From a virus: 64,000 nucleotides of DNA. A program made the position numbers and the translations under genes. The DNA lies in the IMG/VR virus record IMGVR_UViG_3300032073_000007, positions 1 through 64,000 of that record; one strand, written 5' to 3'. Shown piece by piece: positions 2,496-39,167 of this stretch. A model generated the notes under the pieces. The model was not told where the DNA came from. It made no database searches and was given only the letters and a program-made list of their open reading frames with translations. Every line of letters starts with the position of its first letter. The first letter of the stretch is position 1.

Positions 2496-2589
2496 GGTTG
2501 TTCCTTAATTCTATGTAAAAGAGCTTATTTTTTAAAGATAAATATAGCTCAATTGATTTTAAAACACTTTTAATTAACGAAAGCATCAA
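2320..2589 (-). CDS. Putative i-spanin (Rz-like)
   Basis: Helical, charged 89-aa ORF overlapping the lipoprotein gene by 176 nt; the TM segment is weak. Confidence 0.4.
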   Translation of the reverse strand: MMLSLIKSVLKSIELYLSLKNKLFYIELRNNHEKTRKRIIQEIEDIRSNGGDADRGDLLRDELIREDSSFQHLSAFYTKLEEGGSSEHK

Positions 2590-3412
2590 TATTTTGATCT
2601 ACATATTGTTCTACAGTCTGCCACTCATAATCACCTATAATCTCTAACAATTTTGAATTATCGGCTTTTGTAAATTTTTGATACTGGCCTTTTAACTCTT
2701 GAGGCATAGGTATTTCCTTAATAATGCAATTAGAGTGTGTTTTAATAATATCTGCGACATCTTTAAATGATGTAGTTCGACCTGTCCCAACATTAAAAAT
2801 ACCAGAGGCATCACTTTCTAGCATTCTGTAATGTATTTCACAAACATCATCAATGGAAACAAAATCCCTTTTATATTTGCCGCTTTTATCAAAGACTTTT
2901 ATCTCTGCATTTTGTTGCGCTTGTTTAATAAATTTAGAAACAGGACTAGCTTGGTCTCCTTTTTTTTCTTCCCCTAAACCATAAACATTAAAATACCGAA
3001 ATCCTTGATATGGATAATCTTGATTCATTAACCAACAATCAAACATGTATTTACTAAAAGCATATGGACTCACTGGTTTGCAAAAGTCGCTTTCTTTAAA
3101 GCTTCTTGACAAGCCATAAACAGAAGCACTGCTAGCATATTGAAACTTTACATCAATCAGTTTGCACATTTCATAAAGCTTTTTTGAATACTCAAAGTTC
3201 TGCTCTACTATTTTTTTTACATTTGTTTCTGTGGTGCTGGAGTTAGCACCTAGGTGGATAACGTAATCTTGATTAATTAACTCTGGATAACCAGAATCGC
3301 CAAATGATGTATCAAACTTGGTCACATCATAACCTCTATTACTTAAATAGGCGGCTAAATTGCCGCCGATAAAGCCACCTGCCCCAGTTATTAAAACTCT
3401 ATTCGTCTTCAC
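2570..3412 (-). CDS. hldD: ADP-L-glycero-D-manno-heptose 6-epimerase (extended SDR)
   Basis: ITGAGGFIG, HLGANSSTTE, ASSASVYG, YAFSK and GFRYFNVYG.GE.KKG.QAS. Confidence 0.85.
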   Translation of the reverse strand: MKTNRVLITGAGGFIGGNLAAYLSNRGYDVTKFDTSFGDSGYPELINQDYVIHLGANSSTTETNVKKIVEQNFEYSKKLYEMCKLIDVKFQYASSASVYGLSRSFKESDFCKPVSPYAFSKYMFDCWLMNQDYPYQGFRYFNVYGLGEEKKGDQASPVSKFIKQAQQNAEIKVFDKSGKYKRDFVSIDDVCEIHYRMLESDASGIFNVGTGRTTSFKDVADIIKTHSNCIIKEIPMPQELKGQYQKFTKADNSKLLEIIGDYEWQTVEQYVDQNIDAFVN

Positions 3413-3866
3413 TAGTATTTTTTGGATCTTCTCCAGAGACTTTGATATCTTGTGGCTTATTTGGATATTGTCCTTGAAGGATAGTATCTAAAATAAAAGG
3501 TTCATCAAAATCAGATTCTTGAATTTTACGCAACATATTATCAAGCTCTTCATCTCCCGTTTCTTGATCAATTTCTGCTTTGGCAAAAAAATCAAAATTG
3601 TCAGACACTGTAAAGGATTGAATCAACTCTACTACAAGCTCATCGTTTTTAAAAGATTTATTAAGAGAATAAGAGGAATGGCTAAACTTAGCTTCCTCCT
3701 CTTTTCGCTCTCCTTCAAAAATTTCTATATCTCCTTTTCCCTTTTTATATTCTTTTAAAACCCAGATTTTTTTAGTATAATCTGAAGAATCAGGGAATTT
3801 CATATCCGCATCAAAGGAAAGACTTTGATACAATTTATTATCAAGAAACTTTACTGTGTAAGGCAT
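3399..3866 (-). CDS. Hypothetical acidic protein
   Basis: 155-aa ORF with GTGTAA 10 nt upstream (3877-3882). Confidence 0.7.
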   Translation of the reverse strand: MPYTVKFLDNKLYQSLSFDADMKFPDSSDYTKKIWVLKEYKKGKGDIEIFEGERKEEEAKFSHSSYSLNKSFKNDELVVELIQSFTVSDNFDFFAKAEIDQETGDEELDNMLRKIQESDFDEPFILDTILQGQYPNKPQDIKVSGEDPKNTSEDE

Positions 3867-3885
3867 TTAAAGTGTCTTACACTAA

Positions 3886-16538: not shown

Positions 16539-17576
16539 TTAAGTCAATAGCTCTATGTCATGTTTAACCATTTTATTGACTAGCTGAAGAAAATTTGTCT
16601 TAGGCTCCCAACCAAGCTCACTTCTAGCTAATTCAGAATTTCCTAAAAGAAGCTCGACTTCTGCTGGTCGATAAAATTTAGGATCTACCTCCATAAGAAG
16701 GTCATCTCCGTGATAATATCTTGTGTCAACTCCTTCTCCTTCCCATCTACATATTGATCTGTGAAAGCCCCCAAAATTAAATGCTTCCTCTACAAACTCT
16801 TTAATCGTGTGTGTTTCATCAGAAGATAACACATAATCTTTTGGTTTTTCGTCTTGATGTAACATTTTCCAAACGCCATCTACAAAATCTTCTGAATCAC
16901 TCCAATCTCTCTTGGATTCGACATTACCTAATCTCAAGGGTTCAAAGTCTTCTTTGCGACCAAACTCATTAACAATACGAGCTACATTTTGAGTGATCTT
17001 TCGAGTAACAAATTCTACTCCCCTCCTAGTTCCTTCATGATTAAAGAGCCAGCCTTGGACAGCATACAAATCATAAGAATCCCTGTAAACCTTTACAAGA
17101 TGTCTAGCGGCGCACTTAGCTGCTCCATACGGGCTTCTGGGGCGTAGTGGGTGCGTCTCGTCTTGTGGTGTAGACACAACATCACCAAATTCTTCAGACG
17201 AGCCAGCATTATAATATCGGCAGTGAGGAACGTGTTTTCTGATCGCCTCTAATTGATGCAAAACAGCCATAGCATTAGTCTGCATGTGATTGACAGGCAT
17301 TTCCCAACTTGAGCCTACGAATGAATTAGCGGCAAAATTTATAAGGTAATCTGGTTTGTGCTTAGAAATAACCCTGTCGATGTTTTCTGCATCTGTCACA
17401 TCTAAGTCGATCAGAGAAAACCTAGGGTTATCCATTAAGTGTTCTATGTTATCATGATTTTGAACACTAAGCCTACGAACTCCTGCAATAACCGTGTGAT
17501 CTGTTTCTTTCAATAGGTAGTCTGCCATGTGACTACCATCTTGACCTGTTACCCCTGTAATAATAACTTTTTTCAT
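16539..17576 (-). CDS. gmd: GDP-mannose 4,6-dehydratase
   Basis: ITGVTGQDGS, AANSFVGSS, PRSPYGAAK, LFNHEG, FVTRKI and FYRPAEV. Confidence 0.95.
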   Translation of the reverse strand: MKKVIITGVTGQDGSHMADYLLKETDHTVIAGVRRLSVQNHDNIEHLMDNPRFSLIDLDVTDAENIDRVISKHKPDYLINFAANSFVGSSWEMPVNHMQTNAMAVLHQLEAIRKHVPHCRYYNAGSSEEFGDVVSTPQDETHPLRPRSPYGAAKCAARHLVKVYRDSYDLYAVQGWLFNHEGTRRGVEFVTRKITQNVARIVNEFGRKEDFEPLRLGNVESKRDWSDSEDFVDGVWKMLHQDEKPKDYVLSSDETHTIKEFVEEAFNFGGFHRSICRWEGEGVDTRYYHGDDLLMEVDPKFYRPAEVELLLGNSELARSELGWEPKTNFLQLVNKMVKHDIELLT

Positions 17577-18510: not shown

Positions 18511-18515
18511 AGCGA

Positions 18516-21644: not shown

Positions 21645-21712
21645 AAAACCTCTGGGCCTAGGGTGAGTAGACCCAGAGGTCCACTATGACCTCAAGGAAA
21701 TAATCCTCGACC
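21645..21712 (-). ncRNA. Candidate small structured RNA or attenuator leader
   Basis: Promoter TTGACA-N17-TACAAT (21747-21719), small hairpins, then a 12-bp GC-rich stem followed by TTTT. Confidence 0.45.
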
Positions 21713-21747
21713 TGTCCTATTGTAAGATAGTGACCATATTATGTCAA

Positions 21748-21861
21748 CTAATCTTCAATAATCTCTTCACTGATTTTACCTAAGATATAGGCTATAGTCT
21801 CATCAGTATAAAAATCAAGATCTTCGTCTTCCTCTTGTATTTCTGGTTCTAGGTCTGTCAT
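21748..21861 (-). CDS. 37-aa highly acidic peptide absent from the track
   Basis: MTDLEPEIQEEDEDLDFYTDETIAYILGKISEEIIED; GTGTAT 12 nt upstream. Confidence 0.55.
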   Translation of the reverse strand: MTDLEPEIQEEDEDLDFYTDETIAYILGKISEEIIED

Positions 21862-21899
21862 AGTGTAGACACTATACACACAAAAAATTATAAAAGGAA

Positions 21900-25183: not shown

Positions 25184-25249
25184 AACGTATAGGTAACGTA
25201 TGGAATATTATTTTAATACGTTAAGGATACGCTCGTATCCCATACGCTC
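25184..25249. repeat. Cluster of six ATACG/CGTAT repeats at the transcription divergence point (ori candidate)
   Basis: AACGTAT x2, AT-rich gap, ATACGTT, palindrome GGATACG-ct-CGTATCC, then ATACGCTC. Confidence 0.6.
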
Positions 25250-25328
25250 AATTTTTGTAATTTGGCGTTTTTTTTTGGGGTGTCAAGAAAAAAAAGTTGA
25301 TTTTTCTGATTTTTCTGTTATATTAGGG

Positions 25329-25928
25329 ATGTTGATTGAAGATCTCACAGATTCTGCTCTTGCAAACTTGATCAAAGCGTCTAATAACGAGGATGCTTTG
25401 GATGAATTGATCTCTAGGCATTCTGGAATTTATGTAGATATGCTTAAGAAATTTGGCATGAACTGCTTGACTCAAAATCAAGTATCCGACATTATGAAGG
25501 ACAAAGATTATGTGATTTATAAAGCAGCTTTGGAATATGATGAGTCAAAGGCAAAGTTCTCTACCCATCTAGCTAATAAAACAAAATATATGTGTCTTAC
25601 CCAAAAGACTAAAAACAAAAATAGTAGAATTGCTGCTAATTTTGAAGATATTAAATTTTGCAAAAAAGACAAATCATATACTCCAGATGAAGAGTGCGAT
25701 ATCAATGATTCATTTACAAGAATTATCAATCTTATAAATAAGCATAAAGACAAAAGATTGAAAACGATATTCCACGAAAGATACTTTTGTGGAAGACGAG
25801 GCAAATTAAAACCTTGGAAAGAGGTGGCAAGGAAATTAAACTTGTCAGCGCAGGGTTGCATTAACATACACAACAAAGCGGTAAAAGAAATTAATTCAAA
25901 AATAGAAAATGAAAAAATTAAATTTTGA
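25329..25928 (+). CDS. RNA polymerase sigma70-family factor
   Basis: DALDELISRH; KAALEYDESKAKFSTHL (region 2); WKEVARKLNLS (region 4 HTH). Start taken at MLIED. Confidence 0.85.
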   Translation: MLIEDLTDSALANLIKASNNEDALDELISRHSGIYVDMLKKFGMNCLTQNQVSDIMKDKDYVIYKAALEYDESKAKFSTHLANKTKYMCLTQKTKNKNSRIAANFEDIKFCKKDKSYTPDEECDINDSFTRIINLINKHKDKRLKTIFHERYFCGRRGKLKPWKEVARKLNLSAQGCINIHNKAVKEINSKIENEKIKF

Positions 25929-26997
25929 TGGCCCAATTAATTCTCTAAGCCTAGGGAATGTCTCTGTTAATTTCTTAAGAGAATTACAAAACAAAGATAT
26001 TGATCTAGCTTTATTCCCAGTAGGAGAAAAAGGAGAGTTTGATGCTTACGACAAAATAGACGAAGACTTTAGAAAGTGGGTTGGATATAATGCAAACCAT
26101 AGACTAAAAAAGCTTGATCCAGAAACCCCAAGTTTAAAAGTTTGGCATATCAATGGTTCAGAAAAAATGTTACCTAATCAATATCTATATACTTTTTATG
26201 AAGTTGATTCCCCTACCGAAGAGGAAATAAATATTGTAAACATACAAAAACACGTTTTCTTTTCTTCCTCTGAATCTGCCGAAATTTTCAAAGCAAAAGG
26301 ATGTAATAATGTGTCTTACATACCTTTAGGATTTGACCCAGATTTTCATACAATTGAAAAAGAATACCTAAAAGATACAGTCCATTTTGGACTAATTGGC
26401 AAGTTTGAACGAAGAAAGAATACACAAGCTATCATACAACTTTGGTTGCAAAAATTTGGAAATAATCCAAAATATCAACTTAGCTGCTTGGTTACAAATC
26501 CCTTTCTAGAACAAGAACAGATGGATTCTGCTATTCAAGCTTCTTTCGGAGGACAGAATTGGTCTAACGTAAATCTACTGCCTCATTTAAAAACCAATTC
26601 AGAAGTTAATGATTTTATAAATTCTATTGATATAGATTTATCTGGACTGTCAAATGGAGAAGGATGGAACTTGCCTTCTTTTAACGCTACTGCCTTGGGC
26701 AAATGGTCAATTGTCAGCAATTGTTCCGCTCACAAAGATTGGGCCACTGAAGAAAATAGCATATTGGTAGATCCTATCGGTAAACAACCTTGTTATGACA
26801 ATTTTTTCTTTAGAGAGGGAGCATCGTTTAATCAGGGAGAATACTATAAGTTGAGTGGTGATGATATTTTAGAAGCATTCGATAAAGCTGTTGAAAAAGC
26901 GGGACAACTTAACACAGAAGGGACAAAATTGCGGGACAAATTTACATATTCTAAAACAGTTGATTCTATTTTAGACCGTATATACAGCGATTTTTAA
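25909..26997 (+). CDS. GT-B glycosyltransferase (GT4-like)
   Basis: GKFERRKN and SNGEGWNLPSFNA..LGK. Confidence 0.85.
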   Translation: MKKLNFDGPINSLSLGNVSVNFLRELQNKDIDLALFPVGEKGEFDAYDKIDEDFRKWVGYNANHRLKKLDPETPSLKVWHINGSEKMLPNQYLYTFYEVDSPTEEEINIVNIQKHVFFSSSESAEIFKAKGCNNVSYIPLGFDPDFHTIEKEYLKDTVHFGLIGKFERRKNTQAIIQLWLQKFGNNPKYQLSCLVTNPFLEQEQMDSAIQASFGGQNWSNVNLLPHLKTNSEVNDFINSIDIDLSGLSNGEGWNLPSFNATALGKWSIVSNCSAHKDWATEENSILVDPIGKQPCYDNFFFREGASFNQGEYYKLSGDDILEAFDKAVEKAGQLNTEGTKLRDKFTYSKTVDSILDRIYSDF

Positions 26998-27002: not shown

Positions 27003-27353
27003 ATGAAAAATGATAAAGACCATAGCATGAATTACAAATTAAATACACACTTATTGGATAGCTTCTTTGACGCATACGGGACAAGTAAACACGCTGATGT
27101 GAAGGATTGCGGTGATGTATACACTGCTGAATTTGAGCTTGCTGGCTTTGCCAAAGATGATATTGATATTACCGCAACAAACGACAACTTGATTATCAAA
27201 GCTAAAAACAACAAACGTCAAAAAGAATTTAAATTAAATTTATATGGCGCTGTATCTGTAGAGAATATTAGCTGCGAAACGGAAAATGGTTTACTCACCG
27301 TCACAATGCCAAAAAAATGTGTTAGTGAGCAACGAAAAATCAAAATAAATTAA
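27003..27353 (+). CDS. Small heat-shock protein (Hsp20); start may be 27027
   Basis: ELAGFAKDDIDI and ENGLLTVTMPK alpha-crystallin motifs. Confidence 0.9.
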   Translation: MKNDKDHSMNYKLNTHLLDSFFDAYGTSKHADVKDCGDVYTAEFELAGFAKDDIDITATNDNLIIKAKNNKRQKEFKLNLYGAVSVENISCETENGLLTVTMPKKCVSEQRKIKIN

Positions 27354-27733
27354 TGCCAATATATACTTACAAGCACCCTACTGAGGAGAGGTATAAGGAA
27401 GTTGTTCAACGAATGAACGATGACCATACCTACTCTGAAGATGGGGTGGAGTGGGGAAGGGTTTGGGATATCCCTAATGCTGCAATTTCTTCAAATGCAG
27501 ACCCATTTAACAGTAATGCCTTTTTAGATAAAACAGCTAACATGAAAGGCACATTTGGAGACATGATGGATTACTCTTCAGAACTTAGTGAAAAAAGAGC
27601 AGAAAAATCAGGAGGGGTAGATCCAGTTAAAAAGAAACACTTTGAAAGCTATGAAAGAGAAGTGGGCAAAAAACACCCTTCAGAAAAAGCTGCGAAGTTT
27701 GAGAATAAATCTATTAAAGTAGATTACGATTAA
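27353..27733 (+). CDS. FmdB-like protein (zinc cysteines absent)
   Basis: MPIYTY N-terminus typical of the family. Confidence 0.5.
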   Translation: MPIYTYKHPTEERYKEVVQRMNDDHTYSEDGVEWGRVWDIPNAAISSNADPFNSNAFLDKTANMKGTFGDMMDYSSELSEKRAEKSGGVDPVKKKHFESYEREVGKKHPSEKAAKFENKSIKVDYD

Positions 27734-28572
27734 ACAGTTCCTATATTTGTAATATCAACACTTCCCCAGCTACCTCCTACAAAAACTAATAGTTTATTTC
27801 CTGATATAGCTAAAGCTCCTGTTGCTGGTTGTGCGCTTGTTCCAGCTTGAGATCCATTCCCTGACCACAAAGGCAAAGCAAAGCCTGTCTTGAATCTTGC
27901 GGTGTTGTGAAAAGTAGCAGACTGCGTTGCAGCACTACCAAAAGTAGTATTCCCTGATAAAATGCTTGCTCCCAGACATTGTAAAGTTCCTGAAACGATT
28001 CCTGATGATTGAACTGAAAGATGTCGTCCTAGATAAGTATCCCCTCCATTTATATAAGTGCCGCTTTTGAACTGAATATTTAAACTCTCTTGCTTGTTTA
28101 CAAGCATTGATGTGCTAGAAAGACTATCTTTTATAGCGACACATCCAGTAGCCTCTTTAGAGAAAGTAACCGAGTTTCCTGCTAAAACAACATTGTCTTG
28201 GCTCCCTGTATTGAATGTAATGTTAGAGCCACGAACCACTACGTTTCTAAGTCCACTGATATCTCCATTAACAGAATAAAGCGCAAGATTACCATTAGTA
28301 TTTGCATCTGCACCCATCTCTGTATTAACTCCCTTAAATAACAAATTACCACTTTTACTATCAAATGTGTTACTGTCAATATTATTAGGCATACCAAAAA
28401 CCTCTCTTCCATCAGTCAATAACTGCCCTGAAAAAGAAAAATCTCCCGTTAGATCCCTAGATACATTTATCTGAACGCCAGTATCAGTTACTTGGCTAAT
28501 GTTTAAATCACCAGAATCACTAAAAAAAGTGGGCATCTGGATTTGTTCAGGTTGAATTTTGTTAAATGCCAT
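27730..28572 (-). CDS. Probable virion protein, beta-rich and [ST]G-rich
   Basis: Likely start MAFNKIQ; GTGTAA at 28598-28603; composition resembles the tail proteins. Confidence 0.6.
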   Translation of the reverse strand: MAFNKIQPEQIQMPTFFSDSGDLNISQVTDTGVQINVSRDLTGDFSFSGQLLTDGREVFGMPNNIDSNTFDSKSGNLLFKGVNTEMGADANTNGNLALYSVNGDISGLRNVVVRGSNITFNTGSQDNVVLAGNSVTFSKEATGCVAIKDSLSSTSMLVNKQESLNIQFKSGTYINGGDTYLGRHLSVQSSGIVSGTLQCLGASILSGNTTFGSAATQSATFHNTARFKTGFALPLWSGNGSQAGTSAQPATGALAISGNKLLVFVGGSWGSVDITNIGTV

Positions 28573-28610: not shown

Positions 28611-29189
28611 ATGAAATTTACTCTTTATAAGCCAAACTCCAAAAATACAGGCGCAGCTTTTAGCTTCGATCTAGCCAAAGACAAAAAAAATAACGCAGTT
28701 ATGTATGTCTCAATGATTCAACAACATAGCTGGAATGATAAGACAAAAAGTGGCTCTTTTAAGGAAAATGCCAAGAATCCTGAGAAATCTGGCACAATCA
28801 AACTTTCAGCAAATGAAGCTGGAGAAATTCTCTCTTCCTTTAAAACTAGAATACCTTTCGTGGCTTTCCATCGGAGGAATGATGATACTACAATCATCAA
28901 ATTTACTCCTTGGGATAAAAAGAGAAAAATTATGGCGAAAGATGGAGAGCAGTGGCACGAAACTCCTGCATTTGGAGTTAGTGTTACCCGAAACTCTTCT
29001 ATGACATTCAAACTTCCCTTAGAAGCTGGAGAGACAGAAGTTTTATCAGAACTTCTAAAAAAATACATTTTAGAATCTTTTGTCGTGGCAGATGCTTATC
29101 AAAGCCAAAAATCTAACTATCAAAGTAAAAAGCCCGAGGAGCCTCAACAAGAGATAGCAGAAGATGACGATTATGGAGTCCCATTCTAA
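28611..29189 (+). CDS. Putative single-stranded DNA-binding protein
   Basis: Acidic C-terminal tail EDDDYGVPF; beta-rich core. Confidence 0.55.
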   Translation: MKFTLYKPNSKNTGAAFSFDLAKDKKNNAVMYVSMIQQHSWNDKTKSGSFKENAKNPEKSGTIKLSANEAGEILSSFKTRIPFVAFHRRNDDTTIIKFTPWDKKRKIMAKDGEQWHETPAFGVSVTRNSSMTFKLPLEAGETEVLSELLKKYILESFVVADAYQSQKSNYQSKKPEEPQQEIAEDDDYGVPF

Positions 29190-30888
29190 AAAACTAAAAG
29201 TATTAGTTCACTCTAATCACAGCAGACTTGTTACTGGTTTTGGCAAAAATGCCAAAAATATTCTAATGCATTTGCATGAAGATCCAGACATAGAAGTCAT
29301 TGAAGCAGGAAATGGGTCTAAATATGGAGCGGATCTACTTACTCCTTGGCAAAGTTATGGGACACATCCTACAGACCCTAACGTGCTTAATGCGATAAAA
29401 GGAGACGGGCCTAAAGAAAGAATGGCTCAATATGGATATTATACAATAGACGATATTGTAGAAGAATGTAAGCCTGATGTATATCTTGGTATAGAAGATA
29501 TTTGGGCTTTTTCTGATTATCAAAATAAACCTTGGTGGAATAAAATAAACAAAGTTCTTTGGACCACTCTAGATAGTTTGCCAATTTTGGACCAAGCCCT
29601 ACAAATGGAGCCTCTATGCGATAAGATGCTTGTTTGGGCCTCTTTTGCAGAAAAAGAGATGAAGAGACTTGGGCATAAAAATGTAGAAACTCTACATGGG
29701 GCCGTTGACTATAGTAACTTTAAACCTTTAGAAAATAGATCTGAAATAAGGAAAAACTTTGGCATAGATGATTCTTTTGTAATTGGATTCGTTTTTAAAA
29801 ATCAATTAAGAAAATCTGTCCCAAATATTTTGCGGGGCTTCAAGACATTTAAAGAAGATAATCCAGAAGTAAAAGCAAAATTACTGCTACATACAGATTG
29901 GGCAGAAATTGGATCAGGATGGGATATACCTAGATATCTCAAAGAGATGGATATTAATTCAGAAGATGTCTTATCAACATATCTTTGTCATTCTTGTGGT
30001 TTTTACTATGTAGCTCCATATCAAGGGGAAGATAAAAATTGTCCTAAATGCAAAAAAGAAAAAACTTTTAAAACAAAAAGCAGTATAAAGGGCATTTGTG
30101 AAGAACAATTAAATGAATTATATAATTGCATGGATGTATATTGCCATCCATTCACCAGTGGAGGTCAAGAATTGCCAATTCAAGAGGCTAAAGCTGCTGG
30201 TTTAATAACCTTGGTTACCGAATATTCTTGTGGCACTGATTCTTGCTACAAAAACCAAGGAGGTATTCCTCTAAAATGGAATGAGTATAGGGAACCTTCC
30301 ACTCAATTTATTAAGGCATCTACATGCCCTAATGATATAGCGGATAAACTTTGGAAAGTTTATAGCATGACAGACTCCGATAAGAAAGAATTATCAACAA
30401 GAGGGATGGAGTATGTAAAAGAAGAATTTTCAACGCAAACTATTTGCGACAAATTAAAGAAAATACTTTTTTCTTTAAAAAAACCAGAGCCGAAAGAAGA
30501 ACAGAAAAAAGATCAATCTAAAAAAACCTTAAGCTTAGAAGATGTTCTAGGAGATGAAGGTTGTGAAAATAGAATTGCTGTGGTTTTACCCGAATCTGCT
30601 GGAGATATTTTAATTTTAAATTCCTTAATGGAAAACTTAAAAGTTACATATCCAGATAAAAATATATATATATTTACCAAACCTCAATTCTACCCAATGA
30701 TTGAAGATAATCCAAATGTTCACAAATTACTTCCTTACTCTCCTCAAGTTGAAAACTTACTATTTCTTGAAGGAAAGGGAGACCATGAAGGATATTTTGA
30801 TATAGCCTTTTTGCCAAACATAGGGACACAAAGGCACTTAAATTATCTACATAACGGCAAAGATAAAACCCAATTTGAATTACGATGA
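29164..30888 (+). CDS. GT4-like glycosyltransferase with Zn-ribbon insert and a C-terminal GT9 N-half
   Basis: KNQLRK, HPFTSGGQELPIQEAKAAG, CHSC..CPKC and ESAGDIL..LK.TYPD. Confidence 0.85.
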   Translation: MTIMESHSKKLKVLVHSNHSRLVTGFGKNAKNILMHLHEDPDIEVIEAGNGSKYGADLLTPWQSYGTHPTDPNVLNAIKGDGPKERMAQYGYYTIDDIVEECKPDVYLGIEDIWAFSDYQNKPWWNKINKVLWTTLDSLPILDQALQMEPLCDKMLVWASFAEKEMKRLGHKNVETLHGAVDYSNFKPLENRSEIRKNFGIDDSFVIGFVFKNQLRKSVPNILRGFKTFKEDNPEVKAKLLLHTDWAEIGSGWDIPRYLKEMDINSEDVLSTYLCHSCGFYYVAPYQGEDKNCPKCKKEKTFKTKSSIKGICEEQLNELYNCMDVYCHPFTSGGQELPIQEAKAAGLITLVTEYSCGTDSCYKNQGGIPLKWNEYREPSTQFIKASTCPNDIADKLWKVYSMTDSDKKELSTRGMEYVKEEFSTQTICDKLKKILFSLKKPEPKEEQKKDQSKKTLSLEDVLGDEGCENRIAVVLPESAGDILILNSLMENLKVTYPDKNIYIFTKPQFYPMIEDNPNVHKLLPYSPQVENLLFLEGKGDHEGYFDIAFLPNIGTQRHLNYLHNGKDKTQFELR

Positions 30889-32009
30889 GCCATTTAGCAG
30901 AAGAATATGCAAAATCCTGTGGAGTAAAAATCGGGAAACCAGTTTTAAAAACTCATTACTTTCCAATCTTAGAGGATAAATATATAACCATACATAACGA
31001 TAAGAAAGTTCAATCAAAAGAATACAATTTGTGGACTGATGTTTTGTCTTTGCTTAAGCCAGAACTAGGAGATATAAAAGTAATCCAAATTGGAGCCGCT
31101 GGAGAAGAAACAATTGAAGGAGTAGATAAACATATTCCCACAAATACTTTAAAACAATGTTCATACATTATTAATAATTCTTTGGGTCATGTAGGGATTG
31201 ATAGCGTCCCTGTCCATATCGCTTCTGCTCTGGACAAACCAGTAGTGGGCATTTATTCTCATACTTATGCAAATACTTGCTCTCCTCTTTGGAATGAAAA
31301 AAGTAAAGCTATAGTTATTGAATCGGATAGAGGGGGCAAGAAACCTTCTTTCTCTTTAGAAGAGCATCCTAAAACTATCAATTTCATTAAACCAGAAGAA
31401 ATAGCTCAAGCTGTGCTTGATGTATTAGACATAAATAAAACAATTAACCACAAAACTATTTTCATAGGCAATAATTACACCTCAAGTTTTGTAGAAGTCA
31501 TCCCGACTCAAAATACTGAAGTAAGAGCATCTCACATTGATGTTAGGATGGATTATGCTCACAATGAGCAAGTCTTGTCAAATATTATAAAAAACAATAA
31601 AGTAGAAGTAACTTTATCAAAACCTATCAATTTAAAATTTTTATACTCTGGACGAATTAATAAGATTGTATATAAAGCAGATTCATTTGATTCAGAATTC
31701 TTGAACGAAATAAAAAAATCTTCTATTCCTCACGTTATTATCTGCACATCTGCGGAAAACCTTTCTGACGAAAGAGCCAAAAATTTTGATTTCTTAATCA
31801 ATTATTTAGATGTAGAAGGATTAATTAAAATTAATAAAAATAAGATAAACGAAGAAGGCTTAGATCAACTCAAAATTAAAAGCAATAAACAAGTAGTTTG
31901 TGGCAATAAAGTTTTCACAAGTTTTTTTGAATTGAATTCAAGAAAAAATTTAGATCATTTTTATCTTGATCTAGAATTCTTTAGGATCTATACTGAACAA
32001 GATGAGTGA
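30885..32009 (+). CDS. GT9 (heptosyltransferase-like) C-terminal half plus extra domain
   Basis: YITIH, VIQIG and GIDSVPVHIASALDKPVVGIY. Confidence 0.8.
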   Translation: MSHLAEEYAKSCGVKIGKPVLKTHYFPILEDKYITIHNDKKVQSKEYNLWTDVLSLLKPELGDIKVIQIGAAGEETIEGVDKHIPTNTLKQCSYIINNSLGHVGIDSVPVHIASALDKPVVGIYSHTYANTCSPLWNEKSKAIVIESDRGGKKPSFSLEEHPKTINFIKPEEIAQAVLDVLDINKTINHKTIFIGNNYTSSFVEVIPTQNTEVRASHIDVRMDYAHNEQVLSNIIKNNKVEVTLSKPINLKFLYSGRINKIVYKADSFDSEFLNEIKKSSIPHVIICTSAENLSDERAKNFDFLINYLDVEGLIKINKNKINEEGLDQLKIKSNKQVVCGNKVFTSFFELNSRKNLDHFYLDLEFFRIYTEQDE

Positions 32010-32772
32010 TAAAAAAATTTACGGGCCTGATGTTTACAAGCGAAACGAGCATGGATTGCTTGGGAATGCAGACTACGAATTTAATGAAGATGGTTCCGTT
32101 AACTGGCGAGCCATGATTAAGGAGGAATTCCTCTATCCTAATAAGGATTGGTTTGCCTCAAGAAAAAAAGACGTTCCAAGTTCTGTGGAGGGTCTCTCTG
32201 ATAAGCAGCTTTTAATCATGCTAGGAGGCATTAAGGAGTTGGCTCGACTCAGAGGATTTGAGAGTGTTTCATTCAGAACTGATCACATTAGTGATAATTA
32301 TGTTGTAGCTAATTGTGAAATTGCTTGGTCTCCTAATTACGAAAGCAACAATCAAGGTGTTGTTTACCAAGATGTCGCAAATGCGACACTGCAAAATACA
32401 GACGCTTTTTGTGCTAAATTTCTAGAAACAATTGCTTGTAACCGAGCTTTTGTTCGTTGTGTTCGTAACTATCTGAATATCCACATTGTAGGAGCAGATG
32501 AGATTGATAAGTCAAAAGGAGCCAATAATTCAAATACTGTGGAATATGATGCTTCTAGCGACTCTGCCATGCTCCCATTAACGCCCGCAGGGACGCTTCA
32601 GAAGGCTTTGTCTGAAGAATTGGGAGTGAAGACCTTTGAAGATTTCAAAGCTCTTCTCAGGACGTTCTGGAAGCAAGAGAAATACAGGAATGAGGAAGCC
32701 GCAAATTGGGAGTCTTATGGAGATATTCCACCTAAAGATTGCAGAAAACTCATACTAATCTGCAAATCATAA
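32002..32772 (+). CDS. Putative single-strand annealing protein (Rad52/Sak/RecT-like)
   Basis: GGIKELA..G and IACNRAFVRCVR..LNI...DEI pattern. Confidence 0.45.
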   Translation: MSDKKIYGPDVYKRNEHGLLGNADYEFNEDGSVNWRAMIKEEFLYPNKDWFASRKKDVPSSVEGLSDKQLLIMLGGIKELARLRGFESVSFRTDHISDNYVVANCEIAWSPNYESNNQGVVYQDVANATLQNTDAFCAKFLETIACNRAFVRCVRNYLNIHIVGADEIDKSKGANNSNTVEYDASSDSAMLPLTPAGTLQKALSEELGVKTFEDFKALLRTFWKQEKYRNEEAANWESYGDIPPKDCRKLILICKS

Positions 32773-35286
32773 TTTAAAGAAGTTTCTCTGAGAAGCATTA
32801 AACGTAGACGGTATATTCCCTTTCCTTGCATTTGTATTTCCAAAGGAATCTATGGAGAATGTCTGATCTGGTGGTATAAGTGATAATGTAGACTCACCAA
32901 TTGTAGTCGTTATTCCTCCAGAACCTACTGAAATAGACAAAGAATTTATTGTTGGAGTAAATCTAGGTATATGTAATCCGTATAAAGTTCTTGAAGATGA
33001 AGCTGGACGAATGTTTGGATTAACAAGAGACCCTTTGATCTGTTTCAATTTCTCCATCTCTATAGTGCTACCACTAGCCGACGATAAAGTTAATTTGTTC
33101 GTCCTGTCATAAGGTGGAGAATCTACCTTGTAAGATTTAAACTCTACCTTGTCGAAAAGCTCGTTAAGTTGCTGTTGAGCGTCACTTGACTCTGCTACTG
33201 CATCGTCCTCTTTTTCTTCATCGTCTTCCTCTACATCATTAACTCTAGTTTTACTTCTAATATATTTCAATTTTATTGATTTTTTACCAACAATTGCCTT
33301 CTTGTATTTTTTAAATGATTTTTCTGCCAAATCATATACACCGTCAAAAACATTCCCCACCTCGTCGGTAGCTCCTCCAATGAAAAATTGTCTCTTCCTG
33401 TTTGAAGGTTCAAAAAATTCTAGATTTTCTTGAAGAGGGGCATAATTAAGAGGCTGATCCTCTTCATCTCCATCTTCTCCAGCATTTTTCTTTTCAAGTG
33501 AGGGTATATTTCTTATGCCTATAAAAAAGTGAGCTTTTTCTTTTGATCTAGATATTTTAGCGTCACCATTAGTGGATTCTGCTAAATCCATGATAGTAAC
33601 CTCTGTTTGTGGATTAGGGTTATCTTTATCCTCTTTTGATTTAGTAAGAAGTTGTAGCCAATCATTCAACATAGACAAATCATCAATTTCTCTTACTTTT
33701 TTATCTCCTCTGAATGGTCCTAATACAGTCATGTTTCCAGTGTTTTGGAAACTCATTCTTGCTGTTTTATAATCACTGTAAGCATTAGTAATATAAACTC
33801 CTCCTGCAAGTGGGAAGTATGTATTCAAATATTCATAAAGCGGGCTGCCAGAGGGTCTAGGCATTATTTTAGCTCTACCTGTTTGCTTGCCCTCGTCATT
33901 AGTTGGTTTATATTTTAGTAATTTATATACAAATTCATCAGTAATTCTGTCTAATTTTGGCAACTCAGTTGGATTGTCTTCATTTGTTTCTTTTGCATTA
34001 GCCTCGCCATATAAAAAGGGTTTGTTGTCTCCAGCCCCACTCCAATGCCAAGTCTGAGTATTAAAGGGAGAGTAATCGTATAACTTTTTAAAATCTAATA
34101 TTCTACCAAGTCTTTTTTCGTTTGGAGCCTCACCGTTTTTTGGCTTGACATTTCCGTGCATCAAAATATATGTAAATTTATCAAAAACATCAGTGCCTTC
34201 ATTTTGATTGAATATTCCAAAGAATATGCCCATTTCTGGATAACCTAACATTTCCTTGAAAACATCAGTTTTTCTAAATGGTATTCTTTTGAAGAAAACT
34301 GGTTTTGGTCTATCATCATTTTCATTTGATCTGTCTGAATTGTCTTGTGGCTTCTCAGTGGTCCCCACATATGTATTCACAATCAAATTAGATCTTTGAC
34401 TTTTAGTAAATGATGCAGATATAATATTTTCACTTGAACTATTAGTATAATCTCTAATTTGTAAAGTTGAAGCTTCTTGAGAATTAATAAACCTAATTGA
34501 ATATGTCGATGGGTCTATATACCAATAATAGCCTAAGTAGGAGGCTACAGTTCCAATGACGCTTGCTAAAGTTCCTGTCGCTTCAAATATTATACTGTTA
34601 GTAGCTTCAGTTTGAGGCAACCCAATTATAGGGATACCTGCTAATCGAACAATATCTCCAAATTCTTTTAAAGTATAACCTCCTCGGAAGTTATATTGAG
34701 ATAAATCAGGATTGTTTCTATACTCTGTGGTAACAGAACCTAAATTTAAAGATAAATCTTCTATTGGTTGCCCTCTCTTATTATAATACAAAGATATTTT
34801 TGTGCCATCAAACTTCGCCGCTGTTTCAAAATTGTAAATCTTCCCTGCTTTAATAATAGATCCCTCTCTTTGAGGCCCAACAGAGGGGAAGGGTTCTAAA
34901 CCCCTAATGTTTGGAGCGTTGATAACTTCGGCAAATGGTGCAAACGGTCCATTAAAATTTAAAGTATTATCTGGAGGACAATTCACTCCCCTCACTAATA
35001 CGATAATAGATTCTAAAATCAAACTTACTTTGTCAATATATTTCCTGCTGATTGTTTTCTTTGTAGGATCTGCATTTGTAGTAATTTCTGTGCATACATA
35101 GTTATTCATTAAAGATTGTAATTCATCATTAGAGAAAGAATTTATTTCTCCAAGATTTCCTATTACAATTCCTAACCCTTTAGATGAATCTAGATTTTTA
35201 GCGTCTACAATAGAGGTTACCGATGCACTGTGACCTCCACCTGCATTAGTAAAATTTAAATCTAGTTTTGTAATTGATTCCCTCAT
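32767..35286 (-). CDS. Tail tip/baseplate hub-like protein
   Basis: 839 aa; last gene of the tail operon; GYYWYID and C-terminal ISVGSGGITTTI. Confidence 0.55.
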   Translation of the reverse strand: MRESITKLDLNFTNAGGGHSASVTSIVDAKNLDSSKGLGIVIGNLGEINSFSNDELQSLMNNYVCTEITTNADPTKKTISRKYIDKVSLILESIIVLVRGVNCPPDNTLNFNGPFAPFAEVINAPNIRGLEPFPSVGPQREGSIIKAGKIYNFETAAKFDGTKISLYYNKRGQPIEDLSLNLGSVTTEYRNNPDLSQYNFRGGYTLKEFGDIVRLAGIPIIGLPQTEATNSIIFEATGTLASVIGTVASYLGYYWYIDPSTYSIRFINSQEASTLQIRDYTNSSSENIISASFTKSQRSNLIVNTYVGTTEKPQDNSDRSNENDDRPKPVFFKRIPFRKTDVFKEMLGYPEMGIFFGIFNQNEGTDVFDKFTYILMHGNVKPKNGEAPNEKRLGRILDFKKLYDYSPFNTQTWHWSGAGDNKPFLYGEANAKETNEDNPTELPKLDRITDEFVYKLLKYKPTNDEGKQTGRAKIMPRPSGSPLYEYLNTYFPLAGGVYITNAYSDYKTARMSFQNTGNMTVLGPFRGDKKVREIDDLSMLNDWLQLLTKSKEDKDNPNPQTEVTIMDLAESTNGDAKISRSKEKAHFFIGIRNIPSLEKKNAGEDGDEEDQPLNYAPLQENLEFFEPSNRKRQFFIGGATDEVGNVFDGVYDLAEKSFKKYKKAIVGKKSIKLKYIRSKTRVNDVEEDDEEKEDDAVAESSDAQQQLNELFDKVEFKSYKVDSPPYDRTNKLTLSSASGSTIEMEKLKQIKGSLVNPNIRPASSSRTLYGLHIPRFTPTINSLSISVGSGGITTTIGESTLSLIPPDQTFSIDSFGNTNARKGNIPSTFNASQRNFFKL

Positions 35287-36170
35287 AAAATAAATTGTTC
35301 TATGGAGTTTTCACCCCCCACAACATATGGTTCAAAACCAGAGCTTGGCAGTGTAGCAGAAGCACCTGATTTAATAATTCTTACACCTGAATATAGCTCT
35401 AAATAATTAGATTGAAGCTCTTCGACTCCATTTATGTAAAAATTCGTTCTTTTCTCGATAAATTTCTGTCCTTGCATATCTGGAGAAACACCAGTAGCTG
35501 ACAGTGTATTTTTACTCTTTCTACTCGCAGTGTATTTAAAAAATGTCTTTCTTTCATCTATAACTACTCCATTTACATTTGCAGCAGTGCTAAAACTTGG
35601 TTGAAACCCAGTCGCGGTCAACCCCGCGAATTCTGACCCTAGAAAAACACCAACTCCCTGCCCAGAGTAAACTTTCTGACCATTTAAAAAGTAATCAAAA
35701 TCTGAAAAGACATTCAATCGTCCTCGACTATTTGTGATTCCAGTTTTTAGACTTCTTCCGAAATCTTTCTCTCCTGCAAAAATACCGCCAGTAACGATAT
35801 TATATACAATAGTTGATGTAGCTTTAGCGGGAGTTGTGGCATCAAAATTTATAGTAGTTCTTTCTAGAATTGGAGCAGATTCTTTTTTTGTAAAGAAATC
35901 TCCTGTAAATATCTGATAGATACTTTGATTTATTGTTTGCGTTTCTTGCGGGATCTCTTGTTGAAGAGTTTGCCCGTTCAGCGATAATCTTATAGAACTT
36001 CTTTCTGTGTTAAAATCCAACCCTGTTGTTAAATCCCTATCATAGTAAAACTCACTAGCTGTATTGATAGCGACAACATTCCTTTTCTCAACAATATCTG
36101 ACCCCATATCAGGAGAAGAACACCCTGATATAGATACCCGACCTGTTGTTACAACACTCTCGTAAATCAT
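35283..36170 (-). CDS. Minor tail protein
   Basis: Operon position; repeated LNGQ/INGV motifs; [ST]G-rich. Confidence 0.55.
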   Translation of the reverse strand: MIYESVVTTGRVSISGCSSPDMGSDIVEKRNVVAINTASEFYYDRDLTTGLDFNTERSSIRLSLNGQTLQQEIPQETQTINQSIYQIFTGDFFTKKESAPILERTTINFDATTPAKATSTIVYNIVTGGIFAGEKDFGRSLKTGITNSRGRLNVFSDFDYFLNGQKVYSGQGVGVFLGSEFAGLTATGFQPSFSTAANVNGVVIDERKTFFKYTASRKSKNTLSATGVSPDMQGQKFIEKRTNFYINGVEELQSNYLELYSGVRIIKSGASATLPSSGFEPYVVGGENSIEQFIL

Positions 36171-37564
36171 AATCTTTCTCCTAAGTAATAAATATAATCC
36201 TTCTTAAACAATTCTGACTCTGCACTCATTTCCACGCCAGAACTTATAAACACTTCTCCGTCTATTATATCTTCATAAATAGGCTGTTGAATGACACCAC
36301 TAACTTCTTCTAAAATACCAGTTTGTATTCTTGAACCAAAAAGTTTCACAAGAACTTTCTGAGCGCCAGAGATAGCTTGCTCTTCTATGTATTCACCGAC
36401 TGCTCCTTCAACATTTTGCAGACCAAGCGTATCAAAAGCCCCTTCTCCAGTAGGTAAATATTGATAACCAGAATCTCCCTTTAAAAATCCTACCTCTTGT
36501 TTAGAAAATGTTTTTATTCCACTTTCAATAAAAGCATTATACTCAAAATATCTATCTCCTTCTCCTGTATTTGTATTGGTATCAAAACTTATTCCTCCTG
36601 ATAACATATATCTGGCAGTAGATATTTCAATACTACCCGTATGTTGATAATCATAACCAGTTATACCTGTTTTAAATGTTGTTATTTGATTATATCCAGT
36701 AATTCTTCTTGAAGATATATCAGTAGAACTTGACTCAAAGTAATCACCAATTAATCCACTGGATATTGTGAACACTGAACTTTGAGGTAAAAAACCAGAA
36801 AATAATGCAAATGATTTTAAGTTAACCTTTGAAGTCACATATTCTCCTGAAGCTCCATCTGGCCCTGTTCTAAAATATTCATTAGATCCTCCTAAATAAA
36901 ATCTACTGGTATTAGCAATAAATTCTGTATCTATAGAAAAGTCTTCGGAATCTATTGAGTTGTTTAAGACATCTACTCTACTTAAAGATAAATTATTATT
37001 TCCTAAAGAAAAACTGACAATATTTCTACGAGACAATTCTATAGAATTTGCTGTGTGGATAAAATCTCCACCCTTATCAAAACCTTGATAAAACAACTTC
37101 CCTCTATCATTTATCCCAAAGTTATAACCGCTTGCCCCTGATACCACTTCTGAGTTTATTGTCTCAGATCCTTTACCCAAGGAACCAAATAAAACACAGT
37201 TTGTTACAGCCTCATTAAATTCAAAATCAAAAATAACCGATTGATTGGAATACGGCAAATTACTAGTTCCTGTTACTTTTATATTAGATAAATTTAAATG
37301 AGCCTTATCATCTTTTAAAAATGTTCCTGTAGTATATTTTTTAGCATCAGCACTGCTTCCCCCAAAGCCAACAACAACTCCGCTATAAATACCTGTATTT
37401 GATGCTGGATCACAATTTTCTATAACTCCATAATTAATAGAAGAACTAAGGCTATCAATACCGATGTGCCTTCCGCTCATTCCAGAAAAATCATAAAACA
37501 CTAAAAGCCTATCGGTTTTCCCAAGAGCTTCTATTGTGGAGTATTCTAATGCGTTCCGACTCAT
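36167..37564 (-). CDS. Minor tail protein (LamG/lectin-like N-terminal part)
   Basis: VFYDFSG and YLGG; very [ST]G-rich. Confidence 0.55.
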   Translation of the reverse strand: MSRNALEYSTIEALGKTDRLLVFYDFSGMSGRHIGIDSLSSSINYGVIENCDPASNTGIYSGVVVGFGGSSADAKKYTTGTFLKDDKAHLNLSNIKVTGTSNLPYSNQSVIFDFEFNEAVTNCVLFGSLGKGSETINSEVVSGASGYNFGINDRGKLFYQGFDKGGDFIHTANSIELSRRNIVSFSLGNNNLSLSRVDVLNNSIDSEDFSIDTEFIANTSRFYLGGSNEYFRTGPDGASGEYVTSKVNLKSFALFSGFLPQSSVFTISSGLIGDYFESSSTDISSRRITGYNQITTFKTGITGYDYQHTGSIEISTARYMLSGGISFDTNTNTGEGDRYFEYNAFIESGIKTFSKQEVGFLKGDSGYQYLPTGEGAFDTLGLQNVEGAVGEYIEEQAISGAQKVLVKLFGSRIQTGILEEVSGVIQQPIYEDIIDGEVFISSGVEMSAESELFKKDYIYYLGERL

Positions 37565-37565
37565 A

Positions 37566-39167
37566 CTAGTAATATCTACTCATGTTAAATGATAATGTAT
37601 TCTCATTTACACTACTACTTTCTGCAAATGTAAATACTCCTGTTAAATGCCCACTCACAACATCTTTTAATTGTGGCAAGCTACCTGTCTCTGCCTCGCA
37701 AGTAGCGTTGACTGTTATTTCTCCAGCCGTTCTTTCTATTAACTTTTGTTTAGCAAATCCCCCAAGACTGGGAACAATACCACTTAGTTCTATGGGTTTT
37801 TTATCTGATATTGAAACTTTAAGCCCAGTCAAAGTTCCAGCAGAAATATCTATCCTATTATCAAAAGATAAAGAATAAGAAATAGAACTATTCTGAGGAT
37901 CTTTATTTATACTTTTATTTATTTCAACAGGATTTAAATAATCTCCACTTATGTGGTAACCTGTGGCATCTCCAGTAAAATCTTGTAGTGCTTCAATAGC
38001 TAAATTTAAAAAACCAGAATCGTCTTGGACACCGCTGAAAAAACTATCGACCTCTAGAAAGCGCTGCCCTGTTGCTGGGTCTCCTGTGGGAATAATGTTA
38101 AACGGATTATTATATTCAATGTTCCCATTAACAGCAACTGTTATCTTTGAATTATCTTTTGATGCAGATACACTAGCAGATTTTTTGTGAATGACATTTC
38201 CTATTTGATCTAAATTTTCAGGGTCATCAAACGTAAAAGCAAAATCAATTTTATTTGATCCTGTATCAACTTTATAATTAACAGAAGAGGGCTTTCTTGC
38301 GCTAAATGTATAGGCTCCACTTTCATAATCAGATAAAGATGACACAACAGCATTTACGGCTATACCAGATGCCATATCTGCTGTGATCACTCCTGTGTCC
38401 AGCATCCCTACCCCATCTTTTCCAGCCAACATTGATCCTTGGACAGAAACATTCACCCCAACACTTAATCCTCCATTTTTATCAAATGATATTTGCGTAT
38501 TAGATGTAGTAATTCCAGAATCTGTTATAGGATTTTCACTAGTGTTATATTTATAAGTTTCTGTGATAGAGTAAGAATTTGCTTTTCGATCAATGCTTTC
38601 ATTTTTACTTACTAAAAATCCAGTCGCCCCAGTTTGAAACAAACTTAAGTTATAATAACCAGTGACTCTAGAATCAACAAAGTTTTTAGCATTTACTAAT
38701 GCCGCTGAAGAATTAGCCTTTACGCCCACTGCTGATACATTGTGTGTTGCTTGAGTTATTTTTCCTTGTTCTTCGTTGAAGCTCCAGTTGTCAACAGGAT
38801 TTGTTATGCCAAAAAATTTTGAAAAAGATCTATCTGTGTAAGAAGTTAAAGAAACAGAGTAGGGTAAAACCGTAGTTAAATCTGAATCATCAAATGTTAT
38901 TGAATTTGGTTTCGAAAAAGCGAATCCTGTAGTTGATGACCCATGAGTGATCGACAGAGTTTGAAAATCTGGGAGTAGACCACTTATCATTTGCATTTTT
39001 TGCAAGTGCAAGCCACTTAAATCTACCCCAGTTAAAGTGCCGATTAAATTTATATTTTCTAAAAAATGATCTACCTTTCCTTGTATGTAGACAGGTTCAA
39101 CAGACTGCCCAACCAAAGGAGTAGGACTAGGAAAGTTATAAGAACCATATGTAATTGCTTCACTCAT
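37566..39167 (-). CDS. Minor tail/baseplate protein
   Basis: Likely start MSEAITYG; beta-rich and [ST]G-rich. Confidence 0.55.
   Translation of the reverse strand: MSEAITYGSYNFPSPTPLVGQSVEPVYIQGKVDHFLENINLIGTLTGVDLSGLHLQKMQMISGLLPDFQTLSITHGSSTTGFAFSKPNSITFDDSDLTTVLPYSVSLTSYTDRSFSKFFGITNPVDNWSFNEEQGKITQATHNVSAVGVKANSSAALVNAKNFVDSRVTGYYNLSLFQTGATGFLVSKNESIDRKANSYSITETYKYNTSENPITDSGITTSNTQISFDKNGGLSVGVNVSVQGSMLAGKDGVGMLDTGVITADMASGIAVNAVVSSLSDYESGAYTFSARKPSSVNYKVDTGSNKIDFAFTFDDPENLDQIGNVIHKKSASVSASKDNSKITVAVNGNIEYNNPFNIIPTGDPATGQRFLEVDSFFSGVQDDSGFLNLAIEALQDFTGDATGYHISGDYLNPVEINKSINKDPQNSSISYSLSFDNRIDISAGTLTGLKVSISDKKPIELSGIVPSLGGFAKQKLIERTAGEITVNATCEAETGSLPQLKDVVSGHLTGVFTFAESSSVNENTLSFNMSRYY

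Follow-up and report, generated by a model that had tools for sequence, protein, structure and literature searches.

Several tail proteins encoded in a stretch of viral DNA of 64,000 nucleotides (nt) are rich in the pairs serine-glycine and threonine-glycine, here written [ST]G, and a set of glycosyltransferase (GT) genes lies beside the genes for these proteins. The stretch, called the window in what follows, covers positions 1 to 64,000 of the IMG/VR record IMGVR_UViG_3300032073_000007, that is, a 64-kilobase (kb) part of a record of about 111 kb with a G+C content of 35%. It comes from an uncultured marine tailed phage, whose homologues were found in Tara, JGI and ENA marine assemblies. The question raised by this locus is what the [ST]G pairs are for and whether the neighbouring GTs read them. 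A previous interpretation made without database searches (the sequence-only reading) had proposed that [ST]G is a sequon on exposed virion proteins, at which a glycan coat is built. Our analysis suggests, with a probability that we put at roughly 0.45, that [ST]G serves as a tag that is recognised in trans, with O-glycosylation of the tail tip as its most plausible role.

Excess of [ST]G pairs in the tail proteins

The number of [ST]G pairs in each protein was compared with that in 2000 shuffles of the same protein. Four proteins stand out, with 2.2-2.5 times the number given by their composition (z 3.1-5.3) and with the reverse pair G[ST] at or below expectation. These are a tail protein of 465 amino acids (aa) encoded at 36167..37564 on the minus strand (25 pairs versus 10.7 expected, z 5.2; 8 G[ST]), a 533-aa tail-tip protein at 37566..39167 on the minus strand (24 versus 9.6, z 5.3; 7 G[ST]), a 280-aa protein at 27730..28572, which lies on the minus strand inside the GT operon of the opposite strand (16 versus 7.4, z 3.7, scored on the open reading frame (ORF) 27730-28611), and a 295-aa tail protein at 35283..36170 on the minus strand (12 versus 5.6, z 3.1). 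In the four together, S or T precedes 77 of 163 glycines (47%), where 33.8 are expected, and the two residues are about equally frequent at the putative sites. A 418-aa protein of the structural module (47720..48976, minus strand) has a weaker signal (11 versus 6.1, z 2.3), with 7 of its 11 pairs within the first 130 aa. The remaining proteins of the window have z between -2.2 and 2.0. No excess is found in the tape measure protein (40710..46022, minus strand), which sets the orientation of the tail module, in the capsid-module proteins or in any of the enzymes. Moreover, two tail proteins of the same strand provide internal controls: the 515-aa protein at 39160..40707, encoded next after the tape measure, has 2 pairs versus 5.3 expected and is depleted of [ST]G here and in all relatives, and the 839-aa product of the last tail gene (32767..35286) has 7 versus 9.7 expected. 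The manual counts of the sequence-only reading were reproduced exactly, its contrast with 39160-40707 and the seven sites at the start of 47720-48976 included, and the observed/expected comparison that it had proposed bears them out for the four proteins. Its gene starts also agree with the homologues, which show that the 37566 gene begins at 39167 and that the 27730 gene probably begins at 28572.

The shuffles rule out amino acid composition as the cause of the excess. All S, T and G codons occur at the sites in the same proportions as in the whole genes, and the hexamers are diverse; since the codon usage at the sites is the general one, the signal resides in the protein and not in the DNA, and a DNA-level motif or a codon-pair effect is ruled out as well. 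A periodic fibre repeat is ruled out by the histogram of site spacings, which has no peak. In addition, the classical tight-turn pairs N-G and D-G are at or below expectation in the four proteins.

The excess is not a general trait of phage tail proteins or of proteins like J of phage lambda, as the controls from cultured phages are unbiased. In a set of 54 virion structural proteins drawn from nine cultured phages, all of which lack a homologue of the GT4-GT9 fusion gene described below, z stays under 4 throughout, with 3.3 as the highest value. For 47 structural proteins from lambda, T4 and T5 it ranges between -1.6 and 3.3, and for seven tail-tip controls (six J-like proteins and one neighbouring ORF) of cultured Burkholderia, Vibrio, Moraxella, Klebsiella and Stenotrophomonas phages between -0.6 and 1.1, their C-terminal halves included. 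The sole control above z 3 is pb4 of T5 (L132:10485-12551), with 19 pairs versus 10.1 expected.

Conservation of the sites and their independence of the fold

The 105 aligned homologues of the 465-aa protein (36-91% identity) have on average 24.6 [ST]G pairs, with 10.7 expected. Most of the sites in this family are fixed columns, and T289, T299, T302, S422 and S442 are invariant in all 105 sequences. Fixed [ST]G columns are found in two families, of 105 and 69 homologues, respectively; in both, conservation is 0.81-0.95 at the S/T and G positions and does not exceed the alignment mean (0.55-0.61) in the flanks. Other conserved glycines of the 465-aa family lie within conserved stretches, unlike those of [ST]G. 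N or D seldom substitutes at the sites, and the residues at -2, -1, +2 and +3 are mildly enriched in hydrophobic ones (0.45-0.59 versus a background of 0.32-0.34). The sites behave as small conserved tags within variable surroundings. The bias is also kept or exceeded in the relatives of the 295-aa protein (z up to 7.5), and the relatives of the 280-aa protein vary in length from 251 to 739 aa, as for a fibre.

In the AlphaFold2 model of the 465-aa protein (predicted local distance difference test score, pLDDT, 79), the N-terminal part forms a ConA/LamG-like jelly roll, for which Foldseek returns lectin-like jelly rolls, and the beta-rich C-terminal half is predicted at low confidence with very long strands; the [ST]G sites fall in loops, at strand ends and inside strands. 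The 533-aa protein is modelled (pLDDT 77) as a chain of tube-fold modules, with weak but consistent Foldseek matches to neck, Dit, hub and baseplate tube-fold proteins of phages, which points to a multi-domain Dit/hub-like protein of the tail tip; its sites are spread over loops, the caps and interiors of helices and the starts of strands. The sequence-only reading had expected surface loops; in the models, loops, helices and strands all carry sites. Because N-G and D-G are not enriched, N and D rarely substitute and the sites lie in varied secondary structure, [ST]G is not a generic turn signal.

The bias does not depend on a particular fold. Comparison of the four window families with each other by hhalign gave probabilities below 1%. 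In homologues that cover the full length of the 533-aa protein and are 36-44% identical to it, NS, NN, KE, ES and other pairs stand at nearly all the sites except T46-G47, and in one of them (L032) the bias of the whole protein is gone (1 pair versus 6 expected), while the fold has evidently been retained. As the sites are replaced in these distant hub-like homologues, the fold does not need them, and they are an overlay on it and not part of it.

The conserved GT4/GT9 module beside the tail-tip genes

The GT genes nearest to the biased tail genes form a plus-strand operon. One of its core genes (29164..30888) encodes a GT4-type GT fused to the N-lobe of a GT9 enzyme (about residues 466-574); the N-terminal 55 positions of TIGR02195 match residues 470-524, and PDB matches are BshA and the GT9 protein 3TOV. 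The C-lobe of the GT4 part holds an insert of the form CxxC...CxxC, whose residues C275, C278, C293 and C296 are invariant in 29 of 29 sequences. This insert (residues 275-296) recalls the iron finger of the heptosyltransferase TibC but stands in a different GT family. The next gene (30885..32009), which overlaps the preceding one by 4 nt, encodes the C-lobe, or donor-binding half, of a GT9 enzyme (PF01075, E 4.4e-8, residues 85-144), followed by a poorly conserved tail of about 180 aa. The NCBIfam matches of the GT9 halves are heptosyltransferases I, II and III, with best scores of 29.7 bits (cut-off 185.3) and 28.8 bits (cut-off 134.6) and with the C-lobe alone covered. A profile of 19 sequences of the C-lobe protein, searched against PDB sequences, matched best WaaF (1PSW, E 4e-4) and did not match TibC at E up to 5. 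The C-lobe protein has no conserved set of four cysteines (cysteine conservation 0.17-1.0, one invariant). The GT9 domain is split over two ORFs in all relatives, and in one contig (L005:15488-19241) a GT4-like gene, 57% identical to 17641-18510 of the window, is placed between them; thus, the GT9 halves are separate polypeptides and not the product of a sequencing frameshift.

The C-lobe gene is always adjoined by a gene for a 256-aa protein of unassigned function (32002..32772; 49-100% identity), which matches unnamed viral clusters alone in the ESM Atlas. Upstream lie a further core GT-B-like GT (25909..26997; phrog_2170, E 2e-18), a gene for the small heat-shock protein Hsp20 (27003..27353) and two conserved genes without assigned function (27353-27733 and 28611-29189), and the operon is headed by a weak match to a sigma-70/ECF-like factor (25200..25928). 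The GTs had been taken as soluble, and we indeed found no strong hydrophobic segment in any of them, the maximum being a borderline 1.66 in the 17641 product.

The bias is associated with this module. All 31 viral contigs with a homologue of the 465-aa protein have the genes 25909, 29164, 30885 and 32002, in synteny wherever the flank reaches, and across these contigs the module genes are 57-85% identical, versus 31-65% for the tail proteins. A search with an alignment of the GT4-GT9N fusion found more than 541 IMG/VR contigs (46-98% identity). Among 50,697 cultured phage records, this gene has no homologue save a 22% match to the GT4 part in S-CBS4. On the evidence of these sequences, the GT4(Cys4)-GT9N fusion, the GT9 C-lobe protein and the 32002 protein are the core module of the phage group.

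Recurrence of the bias in divergent lineages

The module was also followed into 37 far loci, where it is 46-55% identical to that of the window and where all ORFs of at least 200 aa (n = 364) were scored. Twenty-five of them reach z 4, and all of these are on the strand of the tail genes, downstream of the module. All but one of the 25 have no BLAST match to any protein of the window, and the tail genes by the module at these loci show no similarity to the window tail proteins by BLAST, hmmsearch or hhalign. Examples are an 874-aa protein with 49 pairs versus 18 expected (z 9.4), proteins of 621 aa (z 8.6) and 2055 aa (z 8.0), and a family of about 298 aa (z 4-6). The largest family (family 0) is lambda-J-like (Phage-tail_3, PF13550, E 1e-12 to 1e-16) and is 27-34% identical by tblastn to J-like proteins in 1742 cultured phage records, lambda included; its bias is limited to the C-terminal 1000 aa or so, past the conserved J core. 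An inherited repeat or shared domain was rejected as the source of the signal, since hhalign probabilities stay below 8% both within the window families and between these and the far families, with two exceptions (68% for F1-F4 and 32% for F1-F6, over about 112 aa).

Two tail proteins of the far set, also encoded downstream of the module, are biased in the reverse direction. The one of 2111 aa (L125:15280-21615, minus strand) has 75 G[ST], and 23 [ST]G versus 52 expected (z -5.2); the other, of 1407 aa (L129:15280-19503, minus strand), has z -4.7. By BLAST (E<=1e-6) they form a family separate from the J-like proteins.

Putative donor-sugar enzymes and the variable island

Elsewhere on the minus strand of the window are candidate enzymes for donor sugars. 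Among those named in the sequence-only reading, the GDP-mannose 4,6-dehydratase Gmd (16539..17576) is clear: PF16363 matches it over positions 1-332 of 332 (E 9e-102), TIGR01472 at E 1.5e-93 (313.8 bits, under the strict equivalog cut-off of 415), and relatives are 74% and 41% identical. The assignment of an ADP-heptose 6-epimerase, HldD (2570..3412), is nearly as good (TIGR02197, E 1.6e-67, under the curated cut-off); this gene is present in one relative (G001, 74% identity) and absent from another with a complete genome of 146.9 kb (G002). The FkbM methyltransferase (21900-22463) is a weak match (E 2.3e-6, under the cut-off).

The latter gene closes a variable glycan island (17641..22463, minus strand) that follows gmd. 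The first product (17641-18510) is a well supported GT4-like enzyme, the second (from 18516) is weakly GT2-like (E 2e-4), the fourth (20071-20910) resembles weakly a SunS-like GT2 enzyme, and the third (19274-20068) and fifth (20907-21644) have no detectable similarity to GTs. A PDB sequence search gave no informative match for the products of 19274, 20907 and 29164. For 20071-20910, the best matches in both NCBIfam and PDB are SunS, the peptide S-glycosyltransferase of SPbeta (E 5.6e-5 and 5e-4). In the relatives the five-gene island after gmd is swapped for other small GT2-like and methyltransferase genes. Eight GT genes had been claimed for the window; four of them are solid (17641, 25909, 29164 and 30885), two are weak (18516 and 20071), and two (19274 and 20907) could not be verified.

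Other genes of the window and the probable host

The replication module includes a DNA polymerase III that is split, with genes for the alpha subunit, epsilon and a PHP domain, as well as DnaB, primase, a RecA-like protein and a class I ribonucleotide reductase. The replicative polymerase (6825-10688) consists of three separate ORFs, that is, the polymerase III alpha core (6825-9431), an epsilon-like exonuclease (9386-10000) and a weak PHP-domain match (9987-10688; E 0.0026, under the Pfam cut-off). The structural module is long, lies on the minus strand and includes the tape measure protein of 1770 aa. No cultured phage in INPHARED is similar to the window in DNA (megablast) or in the tail proteins (tblastn), and the large terminase is about 25% identical to terminases of Bacillus phages. 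A CHAP-domain endolysin (226-948) adjoins a gene for a putative outer-membrane beta-barrel of 226 aa (1241-1921; weak matches). From this putative barrel, the host is probably a Gram-negative bacterium.

The hexamer GTGTAA was considered as a late promoter that would link the GTs to the late genes. Several copies stand 5-30 nt upstream of minus-strand gene starts (46032, 49876, 51310, 28598 and 25105). The candidate was rejected, as its 30 copies in the window are near the 25 expected from shuffles and no copy precedes the plus-strand GT genes.

What may read the [ST]G pairs

The most economical explanation of these observations is that [ST]G is a tag read in trans, and the module by the tail-tip genes is the only evident reader. 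In this explanation, selection would have favoured [ST]G time and again on those tail-tip proteins of the phage group that are distal and face outward, where a phage enzyme would read it, most plausibly as the acceptor for cytoplasmic O-glycosylation. Candidate readers are the soluble GT4(Cys4)-GT9N fusion, the separate GT9 C-lobe protein and the further core GT encoded beside the tail-tip genes, of which the two GT9 halves may form one composite heptosyltransferase-like site. Gmd, a core enzyme, and HldD, present in a part of the clade, would supply the donors, and the small GT2-like enzymes and methyltransferases of the hypervariable island would lengthen the glycan and make it differ between lineages. 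Priming with heptose, extension with a 6-deoxyhexose and capping by methylation are the steps that we infer from the gene content; the identity of the sugars, the order of the steps and the action of the module on the tail-tip proteins are to be read in the same conditional sense. A still more detailed picture concerns the receptor-binding tip of a very abundant clade of marine and aquatic uncultured phages. A GT4/GT9 heptosyltransferase complex of two chains, equipped with a metal finger, would recognise a two-residue sequon there, and a swappable diversifying island would give the tip a serotype analogous to a bacterial O-antigen; this picture appears doubtful when all its parts are taken together.

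Several findings weigh against the glycosylation of the tail tip. Of the 33 far loci whose flank includes large tail genes, 13, each with a complete module, lack any protein with z of at least 4 within 10 kb, and two larger fragments from relatives (G005, 59% complete, and G006, 20% complete) have no protein with z of at least 3. One of the 13 loci, G004, has an unbiased J-like protein and yet strong [ST]G proteins elsewhere on the contig (G004:C1:1-656 and 51209-54965, L139 and L141), namely, a 218-aa fragment (z 9.2) and a 703-aa protein (z 7.0). The hub-like protein has lost its bias in two lineages (L032 and L033) although the GTs are kept, and pb4 of T5, which is not known to be glycosylated, has z 3.3. 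At many columns either S or T is fixed, with no free exchange of the two. About one third of the sites in the 465-aa model are inside predicted strands with hydrophobic neighbours, where a transferase acting on the folded protein could not easily reach them. The biased relatives all come from a single large clade in which the module is never missing, so that common descent confounds the association of the two and no clean comparison without GTs is available. The GT9 halves resemble heptosyltransferases of lipopolysaccharide (LPS), and the families to which the GTs belong are the ones that build envelope glycans. A GDP-4-keto-6-deoxymannose reductase was not found, which weakens the 6-deoxyhexose step. 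Furthermore, the proposed glycan coat of the virion was overstated: the capsid and tail-tube proteins are unbiased, so that at most the distal tail tip is involved. As for the putative sequon itself, the claim of the sequence-only reading is supported in part: the excess goes beyond composition, codons, repeat and ancestry and recurs next to the module, but some module loci are unbiased.

A serious rival, possible though well short of an even chance in our estimate, is that [ST]G is a structural or assembly idiom of the clade, such as glycine kinks capped by S/T within a fibrous or intertwined beta structure, which models of monomers miss, and that the GT module is unrelated to it and remodels the host envelope, for example by heptosylation of the LPS core that blocks the adsorption of released virions or of competing phages. 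Several findings fit this: the GT9 halves match the LPS heptosyltransferases I, II and III and WaaF and not TibC, HldD and Gmd are precursor enzymes of LPS and O-antigen, and the putative outer-membrane barrel gene points to a Gram-negative host. Receptor-modifying genes often adjoin tail genes, such as gtr of P22, which speaks for an envelope target too. The presence of the module at loci without a biased protein nearby, the fixation of S or T per column, the hydrophobic flanks and the low-confidence, long-stranded C-terminal half of the 465-aa model, as for an oligomeric fibre, are also in its favour. However, at least seven families without detectable homology must then each have adopted an idiom specific for S/T, and in this clade alone, as the J-like, Dit-like and hub-like proteins of other phages are unbiased. 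The usual turn pairs N-G and D-G are not enriched, the sites lie in helices, loops and strands alike, and they are dispensable in homologues of the same fold. Host-surface morons, moreover, are usually variable, whereas few genes of the group are better conserved than this module.

That some other factor reads [ST]G in trans, by phosphorylation, by acylation or as a clade-specific chaperone (Hsp20 or one of the small operon proteins), seems improbable. The tag-like behaviour of the sites does not by itself specify a sugar, and the operon does hold Hsp20 and the conserved unassigned proteins 27353-27733, 28611-29189 and 32002-32772. Against this, the window has no recognisable kinase, acyltransferase or other enzyme of protein modification, a dipeptide is not a signal that chaperones are known to read, and the GTs are the sole conserved enzymes encoded beside the biased genes.

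Hypermodification of the phage DNA by the GTs, with an unrelated bias in the proteins, is very unlikely: phage GT-B enzymes do glycosylate DNA bases in other phages (PMC12619734) and the module is core and soluble, but three related records, the complete 146.9-kb genome among them, have no ThyA-like hydroxymethylase gene (control genomes were matched) and no TET/JBP gene (in a search without a positive control), and GT9, HldD, Gmd and FkbM indicate a chemistry of heptose, 6-deoxyhexose and O-methyl groups typical of lipid or protein glycans.

Comparison with known glycosylation systems

Returning to the proposed O-glycosylation of the tail tip, its nearest functional analogue is the bacterial autotransporter heptosyltransferases (BAHT) TibC and AAH with their substrates TibA and AIDA-I. 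BAHT genes adjoin those of the proteins that they modify; in TibA, TibC attaches heptose to Ser313, the serine of an S-G pair, and it modifies Ser, not Thr (PMC4358343). These enzymes are soluble cytoplasmic GT-B proteins related to GT9, with a four-cysteine metal finger in a C-lobe, and hyperglycosylate many serines of a beta-rich surface protein encoded next to them, one mapped site of TibA being an S-G pair; the donor is ADP-heptose, of which AAH also takes the L,D form made by HldD. A GT-B domain related to GT9 and WaaC is found here too, with its lobes on separate polypeptides, and the module genes are adjacent to those for the putative substrates. However, TibC and AAH are single chains with an N-terminal beta-barrel and a beta-hairpin thumb and assemble as dodecamers, whereas the phage GT9 is split; the iron finger of BAHT is in the heptosyltransferase C-lobe and the four cysteines of the phage are in the GT4 part; and the phage profile matches WaaF and not TibC. 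Thr and Ser are about equally frequent among the putative acceptors, where TibC uses Ser alone, and these acceptors would be carried by several tail-tip folds and not by beta-helical passengers. The analogy with AAH and TibC drawn in the sequence-only reading therefore fails on several defining features (split enzyme, no four cysteines in GT9, no match to TibC, T as common as S).

WaaC, WaaF and WaaQ of the GT9 family are the best sequence matches of both phage GT9 halves and use as donor the ADP-L,D-heptose made by HldD. They are single-chain enzymes, and the phage proteins score far below the equivalog cut-offs (29.7 versus 185 bits), with the N-lobe fused to a GT4 enzyme and with about 180 additional aa on the C-lobe protein. 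Chlorovirus PBCV-1 is similar in having a virus-encoded Gmd, several soluble GTs and sugar methyltransferases, which work in the cytoplasm at non-canonical sites on its own structural protein, and its glycans vary between viral lineages. It differs as a giant virus of eukaryotes whose major capsid protein bears N-linked glycans, and there is no sequence relation to it except in the Gmd family.

Mycobacteriophages, as described in PMC12619734, modify their own virions with phage-encoded GTs, placing glycans at the C-termini of capsid and tail-tube subunits. The likeness lies in the proposal that phage-encoded GTs modify virion proteins of the same phage. The phage studied here differs in having a dispersed dipeptide as the candidate site on distal tail proteins instead of modified C-termini of capsid and tube, probably Gram-negative marine hosts, and a split GT4/GT9 module together with Gmd and HldD. 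In the window, the capsid-module and tail-shaft proteins encoded upstream of the tape measure gene (48973-57630) have z from -1.0 to 2.0, a comparison that tests the [ST]G motif alone.

Implications for the phage group

To our knowledge, phage-encoded glycosylation of virions has so far been documented for mycobacteriophages alone, on capsid and tail tube and without a defined sequon. If [ST]G is indeed an O-glycosylation site, an environmental phage group that is large and widespread, with the module on more than 541 IMG/VR contigs, would glycosylate its receptor-binding apparatus at a predictable dipeptide, and the modification could be read from the sequence alone. The pair of split-GT9 proteins, one of them with a complete GT4, would then be a compact O-glycosylation system for glyco-engineering. 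If, on the other hand, the pairs are not glycosylated, the signature would still mark an unexplained convergent constraint on tail-tip proteins. For the biology of these phages, glycan serotypes of the virion would be a new variable in the host recognition, grazing and adsorption of marine phages.

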